Below, one piece after another: positions 57,147-64,000 of a DNA stretch of 64,000 nucleotides; the first letter of the stretch is position 1, and every line of letters begins with the position of its first letter. A program made the translations under genes and the position numbers. The notes under the pieces are model-generated. The model saw only the letters and a list, made by a program, of their open reading frames with translations, searched no databases and was not told the DNA's origin. The DNA is taken from contig CAYLRN010000004.1 in the NCBI GenBank assembly GCA_964386385.1, forward strand, positions 50,054 to 114,053. The letters run 5' to 3'. This DNA is from an uncultured Lentisphaeraceae bacterium. Lineage in GTDB: Bacteria; Verrucomicrobiota; Kiritimatiellia; RFP12; UBA1067.

Positions 57147-57164
57147 AACATGGGAGAACGTGAA

Positions 57165-58322
57165 ATGAAGAATCAAGTGCTTCTTGTATCAGATCAGCCA
57201 ATACCGAATTTCATACCGATTCTGAACGACGAACTGAAGCCCAAATCGGTGACGCTCGTCGTTTCCGACAAAATGAGGACAAAAGCCGAATGGCTCAAGC
57301 GCGAAATCAGAAAACAGCAGGTTGAAGTTCTAGACGACATCCTGATTGGCGACAGGGAATCAGACATAGCCGCCGTTCAGAATCGCCTTCTAGAATGGGC
57401 AGGCGAGCATGAGGAACTCCTGACGGAAAGCACGTTAAACATCACAGGCGGCACGAAGCCTATGGCAATCGCCGCCCAGGAACTCTTCCGCAGCGAGCAA
57501 CGCCCTGTCTTCTATCTTGACATTCAATCGGACACCGCGTCCTGGATTGCCGACGGCAAAAAACCAAGACCATCGGTTCAACTCAGAAACTCGCCGACAT
57601 TGGCGCAGTTCTTTGGCTTGATGGGAATGGCAATGGTGGGTGGCGATTTTAAATCGCAACTTGAAAACGAAAAATGGCGCTATTTCTGCGACGAGATTGC
57701 ACAGAACGTTCGTGAGTATGCCTCAGCGCTCGGCGGATTGAACTGTCTCGCAAGCGACGCCGAGCGCAATCGGGAGCTGCTGTTCAACCCACGGGAACAA
57801 GAATTCAGATTGCCCAAATGGGCAGACCTTGTTGAAATGTTGTCGGCTCACGAACTGATTCGTTCAAATCGCAACGGCAAAAAGGAATTCGTCTCGCCAG
57901 ATGCGCGAAGATTTTGCAATGGAATTTGGCTGGAACACTATGTCTTCACGCTGCTGAAGGAATTCGGGTTCAACAAGAAGCGCGCGTTGATGAATGTCAA
58001 GGTCAGGCGCGAAAGCACGGGACTTTCGTCGATTGAAAACGAATTCGACGCGGTCGTGCTTCACAAGAACACATGCTATATCGTCGAGTGCAAGACGCGA
58101 AACATGAAACCGAGCAAGAAAAACGCCCATGTAGACATAGGGGACTCCGCCGTCTACAAACTGGCAGAACTTTCAAGCGAACTGGGGCTTCGCGCAACTG
58201 GCATTCTCGTGTCGGCGCGCGAAGTGCGCAAGGAAGACAAAGACCGAGCCAAATACCGCAATGTAAAGGTTTTCAGCGACCTAACGACCCTCAAGGAGGA
58301 TTTCGCGAAGGTTTTCGGATGA
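57165..58322 (+). CDS. can2: Card1/Can2-like CARF + PD-(D/E)xK nuclease effector
   Basis: GGGAG RBS, ATG 57165. CARF motifs LLVSDQPIPN and NITGGTKPMA. Nuclease GIWLEHYV and EFDAVVLHKNTCYIVECKT. Confidence 0.8.
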   Translation: MKNQVLLVSDQPIPNFIPILNDELKPKSVTLVVSDKMRTKAEWLKREIRKQQVEVLDDILIGDRESDIAAVQNRLLEWAGEHEELLTESTLNITGGTKPMAIAAQELFRSEQRPVFYLDIQSDTASWIADGKKPRPSVQLRNSPTLAQFFGLMGMAMVGGDFKSQLENEKWRYFCDEIAQNVREYASALGGLNCLASDAERNRELLFNPREQEFRLPKWADLVEMLSAHELIRSNRNGKKEFVSPDARRFCNGIWLEHYVFTLLKEFGFNKKRALMNVKVRRESTGLSSIENEFDAVVLHKNTCYIVECKTRNMKPSKKNAHVDIGDSAVYKLAELSSELGLRATGILVSAREVRKEDKDRAKYRNVKVFSDLTTLKEDFAKVFG

Positions 58323-58564
58323 CTCATCAGCACGGACTTCCCCGAAGGAACCTCGTCGCGACGTACCCGTGCGGCACGTACGTCTTCGAGCTGAAGGTGG
58401 GCGGGACGGCGGCGGAGGCCCTGGGGCTGATTCGCGAGCGGGGGTACGCGAAGCCGTACCTCGCGCAGGGTCTCCCCGTATGGGCGGTCGGCCTCGCGTT
58501 CGACCTGGAGACGCGCAGCTCGTCGACGCCGACGTCGATAGGGTGCGGTAAGGTCGACGGCTGA
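58319..58564 (+). pseudogene. C-terminal remnant of a PD-(D/E)XK (DUF1703-partner) family gene
   Basis: ...GTYVFELKVGGTAAEALGLIRERGYAKPYLAQGLPVWAVGLAFD... matches only the family C-terminus. No N-terminal part is present. Overlaps the can2 stop. Confidence 0.5.
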
Positions 58565-58727
58565 CGAAAACCCCCCGAAAACTGCCGTCAGCCGTCAAAG
58601 GATAATCTGGAAAAGATTGGATTTCCCTGCGAATTTCGCAATTCGCCTTTTCAGCCTCGCGCTTCAAGCCGTCAGCCGTCAAAAACGCCCATTTGCCCCT
58701 TTACTTCAAGGCCGAAAATATGGTACA
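58565..58727 (+). promoter_or_regulatory. CRISPR leader
   Basis: AT-richer 163 bp directly 5' of repeat 1. Contains the exact 16-nt direct repeat gccgtcagccgtcaaa at 58584 and 58668. Confidence 0.6.
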
Positions 58728-59295
58728 TTGCAATTGTTGATGAAGCCGAAAGGCTATTGAGACGCAACAAGCGGCGCCAGGAACACCACCGCCGCAATGG
58801 TTGCAATTGTTGATGAAGCCGAAAGGCTATTGAGACAAGGTCCCGTACGACTCTTCCCCCTCCTGCCATGTGACTTGCAATTGTTGATGAAGCCGAAAGG
58901 CTATTGAGACCCCGCGTCAGGCGGGCGTCGCCTCCTCGTGGTTTCCACGGCATTGCAATTGTTGATGAAGCCGAAAGGCTATTGAGACGTCGCGGTGCGA
59001 TGCGGCGCAAGGCATTCCTGCAAGTCCGGATTGCAATTGTTGATGAAGCCGAAAGGCTATTGAGACTCCGGTCAAGTTCGCGTACCTTCCCGCAGTCGTT
59101 GAGGTATTGCAATTGTTGATGAAGCCGAAAGGCTATTGAGACGGGCGGCACTGGGGCGGCACTGGGGCGGCTCTGGGGCAATTGCAATTGTTGATGAAGC
59201 CGAAAGGCTATTGAGACTCGTCGCCTTGGTTCTTCGTCGCTTGTCCGCTGCCCCTCTGATTGCAATTGTTGATGAAGCCGAAAGGCTATTGAGAC
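58728..59295 (+). CRISPR. CRISPR array, 8 identical 36-nt repeats and 7 spacers (37-42 nt)
   Basis: Repeat TTGCAATTGTTGATGAAGCCGAAAGGCTATTGAGAC at 58728, 58801, 58875, 58953, 59031, 59107, 59182 and 59260. The 3' end ATTGAGAC is the 8-nt tag type. AGCC-GAAA-GGCT mini-hairpin. Confidence 0.95.
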
Positions 59296-59352: not shown

Positions 59353-59466
59353 ATGAGGGTAGTATTTGGTACGTGTTCGGCGGCCGCGGTGTTCATGGCT
59401 TCGATCGTGGTGGCGTTCGGAGTCGCGGCATGGCGTGTCTCGAAAGGGGGGAGGCTAGCGAAGTGA
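59353..59466 (+). CDS. 37-aa single-TM peptide
   Basis: GGAGG RBS at 59342. MRVVFGTCSAAAVFMASIVVAFGVAAWRVSKGGRLAK. Confidence 0.35.
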   Translation: MRVVFGTCSAAAVFMASIVVAFGVAAWRVSKGGRLAK

Positions 59467-59672
59467 TAGGCAAGGCAATTGGATGCATATCGTGCCTCGG
59501 GGCGGCGGCAATTGTCACGTCGGTTGCGTGGGCGCTGGCGATTCGCGCCCACCTGTGGGTCACCTTGCATGTGACGGGGGAGCCGTGGAGCGCGCTTCTG
59601 CTGATGCTCGCCATGCTGTACGCGGCGTGGCTCGTCGTGAAATGGCTTTTAAAAAGAAAGGAAAAGGAATGA
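59463..59672 (+). CDS. 69-aa two-TM peptide
   Basis: GTGA start/stop overlap. VIGKAIGCISCLGAAAIVTSVAWALAI...ALLLMLAMLYAAWLVVKWLLKRKEKE. Part of track ORF 59373..59672. Confidence 0.35.
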   Translation: MIGKAIGCISCLGAAAIVTSVAWALAIRAHLWVTLHVTGEPWSALLLMLAMLYAAWLVVKWLLKRKEKE

Positions 59673-59750
59673 AGCACAAGCTGATGGGCGTCCCAATGGA
59701 CGTCTGCTGCGCCGAGCAGGTCGCGGCGTACCGCCCTTTGGCGGGAGCGA

Positions 59751-60326
59751 ATGGCGGATTGCCTCCGCATCCCGCAACGAACATGGGCGATGCGCTTCAT
59801 GGGACTCGTCCATTTCTTCGAGCCGCGCGATGGCGAAACTGGTAAACAGGCAGCCGCCCGCATCTCCGAACGCAATTTCGATTTCGCCTACGATAGGTTC
59901 TACGGAAACGACAGACTGCGCGAAGGCCTTGACGAGATTGGCATACGGCTGCGCGTTGACAACAACCGGCATGTCCAGTATGTCCGTACAATTCTCTACT
60001 ATTCCGGCTGGATGTACGTAAAGTTCGCCCGGACAATCGCCCGTGCCGTCGGCAAGTCCTCATGGGAAAAGATTGCCGAACACGACACCATCCTTCGGTT
60101 GCTGGAACACGACATCAATCGTTTTCAGCGGACAGGCGATTCGTCCGAGGAGGAATTGTCGCGGGAGGACGTCGTCTCGTTCTTCCAGTCTTTGGCGCGC
60201 CTCTACCGACGCTACAACGCGCCGTTCTCCGTGGAGGACGTGCAGGAACTGGCGCCGCTCAAAAGATCCGTCGCCCAGCGCATCATAGACGAAATGTGCG
60301 CGGCGTCCGATGGCGGTTCGCTGTAG
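59751..60326 (+). CDS. hypothetical protein (segment 1 of a same-frame triplet)
   Basis: 191-aa helical ORF with no motif I recognise. The alternative ORF 59669..59845 (ATGA-coupled, good RBS) overlaps its 5' end. Confidence 0.45.
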   Translation: MADCLRIPQRTWAMRFMGLVHFFEPRDGETGKQAAARISERNFDFAYDRFYGNDRLREGLDEIGIRLRVDNNRHVQYVRTILYYSGWMYVKFARTIARAVGKSSWEKIAEHDTILRLLEHDINRFQRTGDSSEEELSREDVVSFFQSLARLYRRYNAPFSVEDVQELAPLKRSVAQRIIDEMCAASDGGSL

Positions 60327-60353
60327 GATCTTGAAACTCGTCCACACATCGCA

Positions 60354-61988
60354 TTGGATGGCAAAGGACGCCCGGTGTTCTCTCTGCCGCAGAATGGCCA
60401 TTTCGCGGAGGGGGCGGACACGGTTGTGTTCGCGTTTCGGGAGGCGTCTGACAGTTCTGTGCCGCCGTTCGCCCATGCCATATACCATCGTACGTCAAAA
60501 GGCGACCATGTCCTGTCATGGGACAGGCATCGCGAATACGGATCTGGAGTCCCCTGCAGGGGACGGCACATCGTCCGTTCCATCACGCGGTTCGAGCCTG
60601 GGACAGACAAGCCGCAGGTCGAAGTGATTCCGCAGGTCTGCCTTGACCAGGAACGAACGCATCTGCTTCTGCGTCTGCGAGATTCGGCAAGGATGGCGTG
60701 TGGATATGAACTTGACGCAAATGGCTCTGACGCCGGCATCGTTTCCACGCGACAGAAACTCTCCGCCGGAACACGCTGCCAGATTCTCCCGTTGACCGGA
60801 GGCGACTTGAACGTCGCCGTCATGTGCGGGGGCGAAAGGTCGCCTCTTCCGATTTCCGAAAACGGCGTTCTGACTATTCCCGGCGCGGCGGACGAGCTGA
60901 TCGTCGGAGAGGATGTCTACGAAGTCCGGACAGTCGCCGACGACTACTTGAACATGGACGATCGATGCCGCCATTTCCGACATCCAGGGCGACTGTTCTT
61001 CGAGCGTTCGCGCAATCCGTTCACGGACGTTTGCCGTGCAGCAGGAGAAAACCTCTCCGCATGGTATCTGTTCGATGATGGCGGCAGTTTGCGCAGGATG
61101 CCAATGCCTCTTTCCGGCGATGCAGACCAAACCATCCCGAACGAAATCCTGTGGAAGAAGGGAAGCCTTGAAGTTCGCGTGAACGATACGCCGCTGTTCA
61201 GGCGCGCTGTCACTTTTACGGAGAAACTGGACATACGGGCATTTGAACGTCCGCTTGACCTGGAGGCGGACGCGAGGCGGATAGCCGTGGTTGGCGACGA
61301 ACGGCTTCCAGTCGACATACTGCCGCGCACCAGGCGGATCGAGATCCAGTGCCACGGATTCACCCTCTCGCTTCCAATTAGCCGGACGGGCGTATATTTC
61401 GAGTGCGCGGACACGGCAATTCCGATTCCGCGTGAACGTCCCGGCGCATCGTACGCGCGCGAACTTGCGCGGAGCGACTTCGAGCGGCTGAAGTGCAGCA
61501 TCGCAACGGAATCAGATGCGGACAATGTTTTCGTGGCGCGGGGAAATACGACGCTTGTCACCCTTGACGAACGCAGATTCACCGGTGGCAAGCTGCTTGC
61601 GGACGAGGCTCTGCAGAAAACGGACAGCGACCATTTCGCCATCTGCGTAAGGCATGAGGGAAGACGCGGGCCGGAACTTTCATTCTACAAGTTCCATCTC
61701 TACGATCCGCAGCGCACAAACGTCGCGGACGCAGGAGAGAATCCACACAGCGTGGCATGGAGACATGAAGTTGAAACGGATGACCTTGTACTGACATACT
61801 GGATTGCGTTTTCAGACCGCAACCGGCAGAAGCATCTTGCGTTCTTTCCGGCGCATCGCCAAGACGAATCCCCCATTGTCGTCGAATCCGGGCCGAAGGA
61901 GACGTATCTACATGTTGAAGACGAAGCGACTGGACGCTGCCGCGAGACGATTCGCATCCCCGGCTTCTTTAGGCGAGACATCGATTGA
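60354..61988 (+). CDS. hypothetical protein (segment 2, TTG start, no RBS)
   Basis: 544-aa ORF in the same frame as 59751..60326. Separated from it only by TAG 60324..60326 and 9 sense codons. Confidence 0.5.
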   Translation: MDGKGRPVFSLPQNGHFAEGADTVVFAFREASDSSVPPFAHAIYHRTSKGDHVLSWDRHREYGSGVPCRGRHIVRSITRFEPGTDKPQVEVIPQVCLDQERTHLLLRLRDSARMACGYELDANGSDAGIVSTRQKLSAGTRCQILPLTGGDLNVAVMCGGERSPLPISENGVLTIPGAADELIVGEDVYEVRTVADDYLNMDDRCRHFRHPGRLFFERSRNPFTDVCRAAGENLSAWYLFDDGGSLRRMPMPLSGDADQTIPNEILWKKGSLEVRVNDTPLFRRAVTFTEKLDIRAFERPLDLEADARRIAVVGDERLPVDILPRTRRIEIQCHGFTLSLPISRTGVYFECADTAIPIPRERPGASYARELARSDFERLKCSIATESDADNVFVARGNTTLVTLDERRFTGGKLLADEALQKTDSDHFAICVRHEGRRGPELSFYKFHLYDPQRTNVADAGENPHSVAWRHEVETDDLVLTYWIAFSDRNRQKHLAFFPAHRQDESPIVVESGPKETYLHVEDEATGRCRETIRIPGFFRRDID

Positions 61989-62054
61989 GGACGTGGGCTG
62001 ATCTGTTTCGTCGTCCACCGAAAGACCTACTTCGGGGAACGCCACGGCTACGAT

Positions 62055-63266
62055 GTGCTGAGTTCCGGCTTCTTCCTGAATGCGCCGGCGGAGAAGACGA
62101 CGGAAATCGGAAACGACCCATATGGTCTTCGTGCCGCATTCGCAGGCAGGGATGGTCTGATTGGCGAGGACGGCGATGCGATCCTTCGCGCCATGACGTC
62201 GAGGGACTCCGCCACGCAGAACTATGTCGCCGGCTTCCTCGACCGCATGAAGGACGCAGTGTCGGAACTGAACGTCTTCACATATCTCAATGCCTACTGG
62301 AACAAGATACCACGTCGCAGCGCAGACCGGCGTCCAAGCGGCTATGCGTTCATGGCGGGAGCGCATTTTGCGAAAATCCTTTCAGACGAGGTGGCGGCCG
62401 AGCCGTATCGTGGACTGTGGAGTCGGCTGCTAATCGGCTACCCTCATTTGAAACCGCAAAGCGACCGCTTGATACGGAAATATCTGTCGCGCGCAAGCCA
62501 TCTTGACAAACTGCCTGTTGCGTTGAAGTCTTCGCTTTGGAGGAAAGTGCGAAAGGCCATCGGACACACCTCTCCAATGGGGTATTTCATGTTCACGAGA
62601 AACCACGTGTTCTCCTATCCGCAGCTGGCGGAAGCAGTTCGCCGCGCATATCGACGCGGAACAAGTCTGCGCGAACTGCAGAACAGAATCCCCAAAACTC
62701 CTTTAGGCGACAGGGCTCGAAACGCCATAGCCAAACTCTATTCAGCCTGGATGAAGGTTGCACGAGGCGAATTGTGCGTTGAAGAAATCGCATGGAAGTC
62801 TGGTACGATCTACCGCAGCGTCCATGCAGAATTTCCGCAAGGCAATCTTGGATGTTTCAGCTGGAAGTTTTTCGAGCCGGCCTTTGACGGTTTTATCGAT
62901 TCGCCAAGCCTCTTTTACGACGGCTACGAGGACGGTTTCAGGGAGGTTCGCGGAAACACATGGGGTGAGAATTGCTACCTTTCCGACGACGACATCGAAA
63001 AATTCATTGAGACAATGGGGCTGCGTCTTCACAATTGGCGGCTTAATCCGACACTGGGAGAGGCGCAGGGCTTGCGGAACGTTTTCGTTTTTCTCGAAAG
63101 CGTGGACGCCCACGTCAATCTCCTGCCTGATCGCAAGGACCCTCGCATGGGGTTGCTGGACGGCATTGAGAACGAGGCCTGGTTCCAATGCAAACTTGCA
63201 CGAAAGTCATCGGCGAAGAAGTGGTCAGAACTTGACCGCATGAAAGAGGAGATGCAAAGAAAGTGA
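62055..63266 (+). CDS. hypothetical protein (segment 3, GTG start, no RBS)
   Basis: 403-aa ORF in the same frame again. Separated by TGA 61986..61988 and 22 sense codons (GRGLICFVVHRKTYFGERHGYD). Confidence 0.5.
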   Translation: MLSSGFFLNAPAEKTTEIGNDPYGLRAAFAGRDGLIGEDGDAILRAMTSRDSATQNYVAGFLDRMKDAVSELNVFTYLNAYWNKIPRRSADRRPSGYAFMAGAHFAKILSDEVAAEPYRGLWSRLLIGYPHLKPQSDRLIRKYLSRASHLDKLPVALKSSLWRKVRKAIGHTSPMGYFMFTRNHVFSYPQLAEAVRRAYRRGTSLRELQNRIPKTPLGDRARNAIAKLYSAWMKVARGELCVEEIAWKSGTIYRSVHAEFPQGNLGCFSWKFFEPAFDGFIDSPSLFYDGYEDGFREVRGNTWGENCYLSDDDIEKFIETMGLRLHNWRLNPTLGEAQGLRNVFVFLESVDAHVNLLPDRKDPRMGLLDGIENEAWFQCKLARKSSAKKWSELDRMKEEMQRK

Positions 63267-64000
63267 ATGCCGAATTCAACGCCGTCCACGCCTATGAGGA
63301 CGTTCGCAGAAAATACATTCAGTTCGTGCTCGACCGCGCCTTGGGCGTATATCCGAATTTCGGCGAACGCGCCCGTACTTGAAGCGCATCTGGACGTCCG
63401 ACGACCCGAAGACCGCGCTCTTCGCCCGTCCCGTAGTCGAACCGCTCTTCCCATATCCGTCTTCGGGACGGTCGATCCAGTCGCTCGTCGCCGCCGGAGT
63501 TCTGCACCCGGCAATGACGCGCTACGTGTCGGGGTTCCTGTTGAAGGACGGCGCGTCGCTCTACAGGCACCAACTCGCCGCCATCGAGGCGAGCCGAGAA
63601 CGCCATGTCGTCGTCGCATCCGGCACGGGTTCAGGAAAGACGGAGTGCTTTCTCTATTCAATGCTGAACAATCTGCTCTTCTCCGAGACAAAGGCATCGC
63701 TGACGTGGCCCGGAGTCCGCATCCTGCTCATATATCCGATGAACGCGCTCGTCAACGACCAGTTCGCGCGCATTCGGAAACTGCTTGAAAAAAGCCCTGA
63801 TGGCATCACAGTCGGCATGTACACGGGGCAGACGAAAGAAGATGACAGGCGTGAAATCCGCAGACGCCCTCCACACATCCTCATAACCAACTATTCGATG
63901 ATGGAGTATATGCTGCTGCGGCGTGCGGACAACGCGCTCTTCGAGGGGGGGCTTCTTCAGGCGATAGTACTCGACGAGGCACATCTCTATTCGGGAGACG
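63263..64000 (+). CDS. SF2 DEAH-box helicase, YprA/Lhr/DrmA/DruE-like, 5' part (runs off window; apparent frameshift near 63379)
   Basis: GTGA-coupled start VNAEFNAVHAYEDVRRKYIQFVLDRAL... stops at 63380. The frame from 63379 continues LKRIWTSDD...LYRHQLAAIE..VVVASGTGSGKTE (motif I), YPMNALVNDQ (Ia), ILITNYSMMEYML (Ib), VLDEAHLYSG (II). Confidence 0.8.

Follow-up and report, generated by a model that had tools for sequence, protein, structure and literature searches.

How should three consecutive open reading frames (ORFs) be read when they share one frame and are parted only by two stop codons: as three genes, as one gene whose stops are misread or miscalled, or as one gene that has been lost? 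The question is raised by positions 59751 to 63266 of a 64,000-nt stretch of contig CAYLRN010000004.1 from an uncultured Lentisphaeraceae bacterium, a stretch that we call the window and in which the three ORFs lie directly upstream of the gene for a DruE-type helicase. Our reading, to which we give a probability of roughly 85%, is that they are the remnants of a single ~1,200-codon gene that encoded the partner of this helicase in a Druantia type III-like anti-phage module. At least four independent lesions have accumulated in it: the partner gene is scrambled at its 5′ end, one of its Gln codons has become TAG and one of its Trp codons TGA, and druE has lost 19 nt. Neither full-length protein can be made here, and the two-gene unit is therefore very probably inactive. 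The features concerned are the following.

59669..59750, + strand: degenerate 5′ end of the partner gene, recognised by the start of similarity, a lost motif and in-frame TGA codons
59751..60323, + strand: fragment 1 of the partner gene, 191 codons, corresponding to about residues 30-220 of a 1,200-aa orthologue and to the predicted N-terminal helical domain
60324..60326, + strand: premature TAG; CAG (Gln) in both closest orthologues
60327..61985, + strand: fragment 2, 553 sense codons, a predicted array of immunoglobulin (Ig)-like beta-sandwich domains
61986..61988, + strand: premature TGA; TGG in both closest orthologues
61989..63266, + strand: fragment 3, the predicted last beta-sandwich and C-terminal helical domain, with the native stop TGA at 63264-63266
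63263..63382, + strand: detached N-terminal 39 codons of the DruE-type helicase, with a GTG start and ending at TGA 63380
63370..63374, + strand: site of the 19-nt helicase deletion, from alignment with both closest orthologues
63379..64000, + strand, continuing past the window: core of the DruE-type (YprA-family superfamily 2) helicase, with Walker A GSGKT and DEAH

Orthologues across Both Stop Codons

An earlier note on this DNA had described three ORFs in one frame, and its coordinates check out: 59751-60326, 60354-61988 and 62055-63266 all have start coordinates divisible by 3, and the frame is interrupted only by TAG 60324-60326 and TGA 61986-61988, the former followed by 9 sense codons before TTG 60354 and the latter by 22 (peptide GRGLICFVVHRKTYFGERHGYD) before GTG 62055. 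The codon-position GC signature, low at position 2 and high at position 3, is continuous from 59760 to 63120 with both stops included. Geometry of this kind proves nothing on its own, because 622 pairs of coding-like ORFs (at least 150 codons each) lie in the same frame with a single stop between them across this genome; in a compact, GC-rich genome the arrangement is not beyond chance, and it is homology that gives the case its meaning.

The same note had proposed a search for uninterrupted orthologues, and these were found. With the translation of 59751-63263 as the query, the two stops being read as residues, a phmmer search of 1.84 billion representative proteins gave 51 matches, and the best full-length ones, proteins of 1,130-1,210 aa, aligned in a single stretch from about residue 4 to about residue 1148 that spans both stops. 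In tblastn searches of contigs from Verrucomicrobia and Kiritimatiellae metagenome-assembled genomes (MAGs), the whole gene was matched in a single frame, and the stop-free open frames that cover it there run to 1,131-1,327 codons. A word-indexed search covering 5.8 billion clustered proteins, in which scoring was confined to the 8,000 candidates with the most words in common, added two nearer intact relatives, at 85% (1,200 aa) and 80% (1,180 aa) amino-acid identity, whose contigs are referred to below as L015 and L016, respectively. No split orthologue was found among the relatives examined, and the gene is intact in every fetched contig that holds it whole. One member of the family (P0008, 1,532 aa) has an extra N-terminal extension of ~440 residues ahead of the homologous region.

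The two nearest relatives also indicate what the stops replaced. Both have CAG (Gln) at the site of TAG 60324 and TGG (Trp) at the site of TGA 61986, and each stop is therefore the product of one G:C-to-A:T transition. In an alignment of 18 sequences the TAG column varies (N, Q, K, S and others), and in an AlphaFold2 model of the partner it falls in a linker, modelled with low confidence, that joins the helical head to the first beta-sandwich domain. The TGA replaces the Trp of a conserved motif, IDW-G-x-G-L-L-C-F; the six closest homologues all have this Trp, and so do most of the 18 aligned sequences. On the evidence of these alignments the three ORFs are pieces of one ~1,200-codon gene, the partner of the Druantia-type helicase, much as the earlier note had favoured when it spoke of a single ~1,170-aa gene broken by two nonsense changes.

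Could the pieces nevertheless serve as three or more separate functional genes, together supplying a split version of the partner protein? Such a split would be eased by the position of the first stop in a predicted inter-domain linker and by one candidate start site. The earlier note saw no purine-rich ribosome-binding site (RBS) at the internal starts; this holds for TTG 60354 and GTG 62055, before which no Shine-Dalgarno (SD) sequence was found, but not for GTG 60375, which has an SD-like AAGGA 6 nt upstream and was picked as a start, giving 537 aa, by the gene caller of the Logan record described below. The bases of this AAGGA are plain coding sequence (DGKGRPV) in the intact orthologues. 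Against a split stand the absence of any split relative, the bare GTG 62055, the second stop, which cuts within the beta region just before the conserved W-G-x-G-L-L-C-F strand, and the fact that the helicase is frameshifted as well. Separate genes, which the earlier note also thought the poorer fit, seem to us highly improbable.

Lesions at the 5′ End and in the Helicase Gene

The damage to the partner gene extends to its beginning. The nucleotide sequence can be matched to L015 and L016 only from 59731 onwards, and in both relatives the protein begins with MANEAFSWERF..., 29 codons before the counterpart of ATG 59751. The N-terminal motif FSW..F, conserved across the partner family, is destroyed in this genome; the scrambled stretch, which takes in the first ~22 codons, is five bases shorter than in the relatives, and two in-frame TGA codons (59670 and 59682) lie in this 5′ end. 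An ATG at 59669, which has a strong RBS (GGAAAAGGA), overlaps the stop codon of a small upstream ORF and is out of frame with the body of the gene. The 5′ breakpoint coincides with a rearrangement of the CRISPR locus relative to L015, which is described in the last section.

The helicase gene, whose start is GTG here and ATG in L015 and L016, overlaps the partner-gene stop and is itself broken. Compared with both relatives it has lost 19 nt at about 63370-63374, in GERA[HWESARA]YLKRIW, and the frame is shifted, such that the first ~38 residues and the core, which occupy one frame in three other fetched loci (L004, L005 and L008), lie in different frames here. The core ORF has 1,665 codons and reaches past the window to the equivalent of 68376. 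A 1-nt deletion, also considered as the cause of the frameshift, is ruled out by the alignment with L015 and L016, which shows 19 nt. Three of the four lesions fall in the partner gene, which makes up 41% of the length, for which the estimated probability under uniform placement is about 0.2, and we make no claim that the lesions cluster.

The small ORF whose stop overlaps ATG 59669 (ATGA) occupies 59373-59672 in the same frame and has 99 codons, the last of which encode a hydrophobic helix followed by a basic tail (…LMLAMLYAAWLVVKWLLKRKEKE). L015 and L016 have no homologue of this ORF, and it matches no family.

Decay, Error or Recoding

A gene broken in an assembly need not be broken in the organism. 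The genome is a 68-contig draft, and base-calling error was among the explanations that the earlier note had offered. However, a contig of an independent public assembly (Logan, 9,654 nt, run SRR10277277) is 100% identical to the present sequence over window positions 59259-68626 (9,368 nt), all lesions included, and the fragments called on it are of 191, 537, 403, 39 and 1,665 aa. The lesions, moreover, fall into three kinds, two being transitions, one a 19-nt deletion and one a rearrangement of the 5′ end, and both the neighbouring long ORFs of 1,363-1,964 codons and the 1,665 remaining codons of druE run on uninterrupted. An error of sequencing, base calling or assembly that conceals an intact gene is thus very improbable.

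The substitution pattern bears on the age of the lesions. Non-synonymous and synonymous codon changes unique to a lineage stand at 75:127 in the partner gene of this lineage vs 32:53 in the intact L015 lineage, and at 117:177 vs 53:77 in druE. No relaxation is visible in these ratios, from which we infer that the inactivation is recent. Young lesions would also suit a mixed population, in which the assembly holds the broken allele and an intact one coexists in the community, and a metagenome consensus can hide minor variants. Yet no intact protein nearer than 85% identity emerged from the 8,000 scored candidates, and the sole other public contig with this sequence has the same lesions; we consider such coexistence improbable.

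Readthrough, also raised by the earlier note, has one point of attraction. Near-cognate reading of UGA by tRNA-Trp is a classic leaky event, and the TGA at 61986 stands in place of a Trp codon. Nonetheless, two different stops would have to be passed, and the 5′ end and druE are broken besides. The stops are not conserved, L015 and L016 having sense codons at 60324 and 61986. No suppressor tRNA was found among the 45 tRNAs of the genome, in which tRNA-Trp has the anticodon CCA, and TGA and TAG are its main genuine stops, ending 65% and 26%, respectively, of 1,124 long coding ORFs; the code is the standard one. That programmed readthrough or recoding yields a full-length protein here is barely credible, and we return to decay as the explanation of all three ORFs.

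Several considerations weigh against this reading and should be borne in mind. The unchanged ratio of non-synonymous to synonymous changes also fits continued selection on the pieces, and the SD-like AAGGA before GTG 60375 leaves room for translation of some fragment. The assembly and the identical Logan contig may come from one sample, in which case a minority intact allele is possible. Finally, the function that we propose for the intact module is drawn by analogy with Druantia III, and its partner protein has no detectable sequence similarity to DruH.

The Helicase and Its Cassette Variants

Assignment of the helicase follows from its ranking in profile searches. Its best PADLOC match is DruE3 (PDLC00037, 5.9e-112), followed by other DruE models, with other PADLOC families (SngC, BrxH, DpdJ and DrmA) at 1e-28 or weaker, and the helicases of the intact relatives give the same ranking, with DruE first. 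The motifs GSGKT and DEAH are present, and Pfam DEAD and Helicase_C match. Scores on the DruE3 models are only ~370-440 bits vs ~2,200 bits for canonical DruE, Pfam DUF1998 (the MZB zinc-binding domain) is not reported at E<=0.01 for this helicase or that of L004, and one CxxC...CxxC pair is conserved in this helicase family vs several in canonical DruE. By these profile matches we class the helicase as DruE-type. The partner lies immediately upstream of it and in the same direction in the window and in all 11 distinct loci whose fetched sequence extends to the gene downstream (L004, L005, L008, L015, L016, L017, L018, L019, L020, L021 and L022).

Beyond this constant pair the cassette varies. 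Distant relatives have a long DruE of 2,076-2,119 aa, and in most of them the long DruE is followed by a coupled HNH_2 gene (252-258 aa), making a three-gene cassette. This HNH_2 endonuclease gene is found at the following positions.

L005 13450-14208: HNH_2 gene after long druE
L008 9841-10614: HNH_2 gene after long druE
L017 10146-10913: HNH_2 gene after long druE
L018 19818-20594: HNH_2 gene after long druE
L020 12150-12911: HNH_2 gene after long druE

The long forms owe their length to an extra C-terminal domain of ~380 aa (L004 16528-17766, with equivalents in L005, L008, L017, L018, L020 and L021), which has a conserved ...H-D/A-R-F/S-M...GKG-F/L-x-F-L/I-D/N... motif and neither an aligned match to the HxK(x)4D motif of phospholipase D (PLD) nor a match in Pfam. 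The closest relatives, L015 and L016, have a compact intact DruE of 1,730 aa with no HNH gene and no C-terminal nuclease domain, and this genome likewise has a compact DruE of ~1,700 aa and no HNH gene. To judge from these sequences, the short form is a trait of the lineage. An alternative in which the helicase (1,665/1,703 aa) had been truncated by a ~2.5-kb deletion that also removed the HNH gene was suggested by relatives of ~53% identity, which have a 2,110-aa DruE, an HNH gene and a shared AAA-ATPase_like neighbour; it was rejected on the evidence of L015 and L016, where the 1,730-aa DruE is intact and is followed by cas1.

A Partner Family outside the DruH Models

The partner itself matches no model in PADLOC, NCBIfam or Pfam, the local Pfam set being one without PF27205 and PF27201. 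At E<=0.1, PADLOC (13 DruH3 models included) gave 0 matches for the read-through protein and 17 full-length homologues, and at E<=1, NCBIfam, which includes NF038336, gave 0 for six members of the family. Canonical plasmid DruH proteins, run as positive controls, scored up to 1,737 bits in PADLOC and 780 bits on NF038336. In precomputed annotation, PF27205 is found on all 65 canonical DruH matches, most of which also carry PF27201, vs 0 of 15 homologues of the partner for either. Profile-profile comparison was equally negative: hhalign gave a probability of 0.06% for the 18-sequence partner alignment against a 17-sequence DruH alignment and of 0.3% for the partner family against a 2-sequence DruH alignment, and hmmsearch --max found no match between the partner family and DruH. 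A search of plasmids found no relative of the partner, and a sequence search of the PDB found no meaningful match.

Predicted structure tells a somewhat different story. The AlphaFold2 model of the partner (predicted local distance difference test score, pLDDT, 80.9) is helical over residues 1-185, beta over 199-777 and helical again over 790-1170, and the beta region comprises about six Ig-like beta-sandwich domains. Foldseek returned weak matches to alpha-2-macroglobulin/complement (macroglobulin, MG) arrays and to arrays of fibronectin type III (FnIII) and Ig domains, with no DruH among the PDB matches, and among viral folds only generic Ig arrays and tail proteins were matched. A model of canonical DruH is built in the same order (helical 1-237, beta 248-788, helical 800-1080) and draws the same class of weak Foldseek matches. 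As far as these models go, the partner is DruH-like by position, size and predicted build, which does not establish it as a member of the DruH family.

Two plasmids provide a related observation. In a Chryseobacterium plasmid (L013 1854-4841) a 995-aa hypothetical protein, and in a Roseomonas plasmid (L014 899-4876) one of 1,325 aa, is encoded directly upstream of a DruE-like helicase. Neither matches the partner-family profile (hmmsearch --max), which hints at further partner families.

Comparison with Druantia III

The earlier note had likened the locus, as speculation, to a two-gene DruH+DruE layout, and this comparison stands in part: the DruE-type helicase and the position, size and predicted build of the partner agree with it, but every sequence test for DruH fails. 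Several forms of Druantia III are available for comparison. In Escherichia coli Druantia III-A, DruH has 1,119 aa and DruE 2,104 aa with tandem PLD-like domains (bioRxiv 10.64898/2026.05.12.722862, 10.64898/2026.05.12.724681), and cryo-electron microscopy of DruH resolved six Ig-like subdomains between an N-terminal and a C-terminal domain (bioRxiv 10.64898/2026.05.12.722862), the pocket residues for single-stranded DNA (ssDNA) and ATP being Y670, N672, Y733, R1031, H1062, R1064 and K1067. Mycobacterium smegmatis MSMEG_1253/1254 is a compact, nuclease-less Druantia III with a DruH of 1,132 aa and a DruE of 1,667 aa (PMC13316683), in which DruH on its own is reported to be toxic unless accompanied by a DruE, and Bell et al. 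described a 'type III-B / III-like' branch of Druantia (PMC12458937).

Like the DruH-DruE pair of Druantia III, the intact form of the present module has two tightly coupled, co-directional genes, the first of which encodes a partner of ~1,100-1,200 aa directly upstream of DruE; the helicase finds DruE3 as its best PADLOC match, and the partner has a predicted helical head and tail with about six Ig-like domains between them. Unlike Druantia III, the partner matches none of DruH3, NF038336, PF27205 and PF27201, with a profile-profile probability of <1% against DruH, and the helicase scores far below canonical DruE, with no DUF1998 detected. The 1,730-aa DruE of the closest relatives, lacking a C-terminal nuclease domain, recalls the compact nuclease-less form, whereas most of the distant relatives depart from it by adding the HNH_2 gene and the ~380-aa C-terminal DruE domain. 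With E. coli Druantia III-A the family shares gene order, protein sizes (in the case of DruE, those of the distant relatives) and predicted partner architecture; it differs in that the partner lacks DruH sequence similarity, the C-terminal domain of the helicase has no recognisable PLD motif and there is an extra HNH gene.

If the published work on the E. coli and M. smegmatis systems is taken as a guide, the partner in intact relatives would act as the infection sensor, a regulator that binds ssDNA or nucleotide, and DruE would load on 3′ ssDNA as a 3′-to-5′ helicase effector that unwinds phage DNA intermediates. Where present, the HNH protein or the extra C-terminal domain of DruE would supply cleavage. 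One may also speculate that, if the partner is toxic by itself as that DruH is, the loss of either gene would promote the loss of its neighbour; the lesions are too few to say more.

The broken gene pair is an ordinary, recently decayed defence module, and the broken partner gene is in itself a routine example of defence-system decay. What is new, and modestly so, is the intact family, which appears to be a Druantia III-like variant missed by current models and, in this lineage, embedded in a type III-B CRISPR locus. The family is conserved in gut and rumen bacteria of Verrucomicrobiota/Kiritimatiellia type (51 representatives at 50% clustering) and holds the position of DruH beside DruE, where it is invisible to the DruH models of PADLOC, NCBIfam and Pfam, and such Druantia III-like systems are therefore not currently counted. 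Setting side by side partners that have the DruH build in common but are unrelated in sequence could reveal the parts of DruH on which sensing depends.

The CRISPR Locus and Its Rearrangement

In this genome and its two closest relatives the pair lies between cmr/CARF-effector genes and cas1-cas2 of a type III-B CRISPR locus, whose array is placed in the window as follows.

58728..59295, + strand: CRISPR array of 8 identical 36-nt repeats

The gene order in L015 is cmr genes, csx1, partner, druE, leader and one repeat, cas1 and cas2. From a comparison of window 57150-59295 with L015 3910-5145 and 14143-14350, two differences are apparent: csx1 (CARF-HEPN) of L015 is replaced here by a gene for a Card1/Can2-type CARF nuclease, and the leader with its eight-repeat array lies upstream of the partner here and next to cas1 in L015, where only one degenerate repeat is present. 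This setting invites the idea that the compact pair was a functional accessory of type III-B CRISPR-Cas, for example by unwinding or processing target DNA on behalf of the effector or in spacer capture, and that the module was later discarded here, in the rearrangement by which the leader and array changed place and csx1 gave way to the Card1/Can2-type nuclease. We think such a role unlikely.

A further difference lies between druE and cas1, where this genome has an AAA-ATPase_like + PDDEXK_9 gene (L002 10500-12069, window-equivalent 68500-70069) that is absent from L015 and L016. The 5′ end of this gene has 81.6% DNA identity to the end of L005, from a 'Gemmiger sp.' MAG, which far exceeds the ~52% protein identity of the neighbouring defence genes, and this suggests that the gene is mobile or has recently been exchanged.

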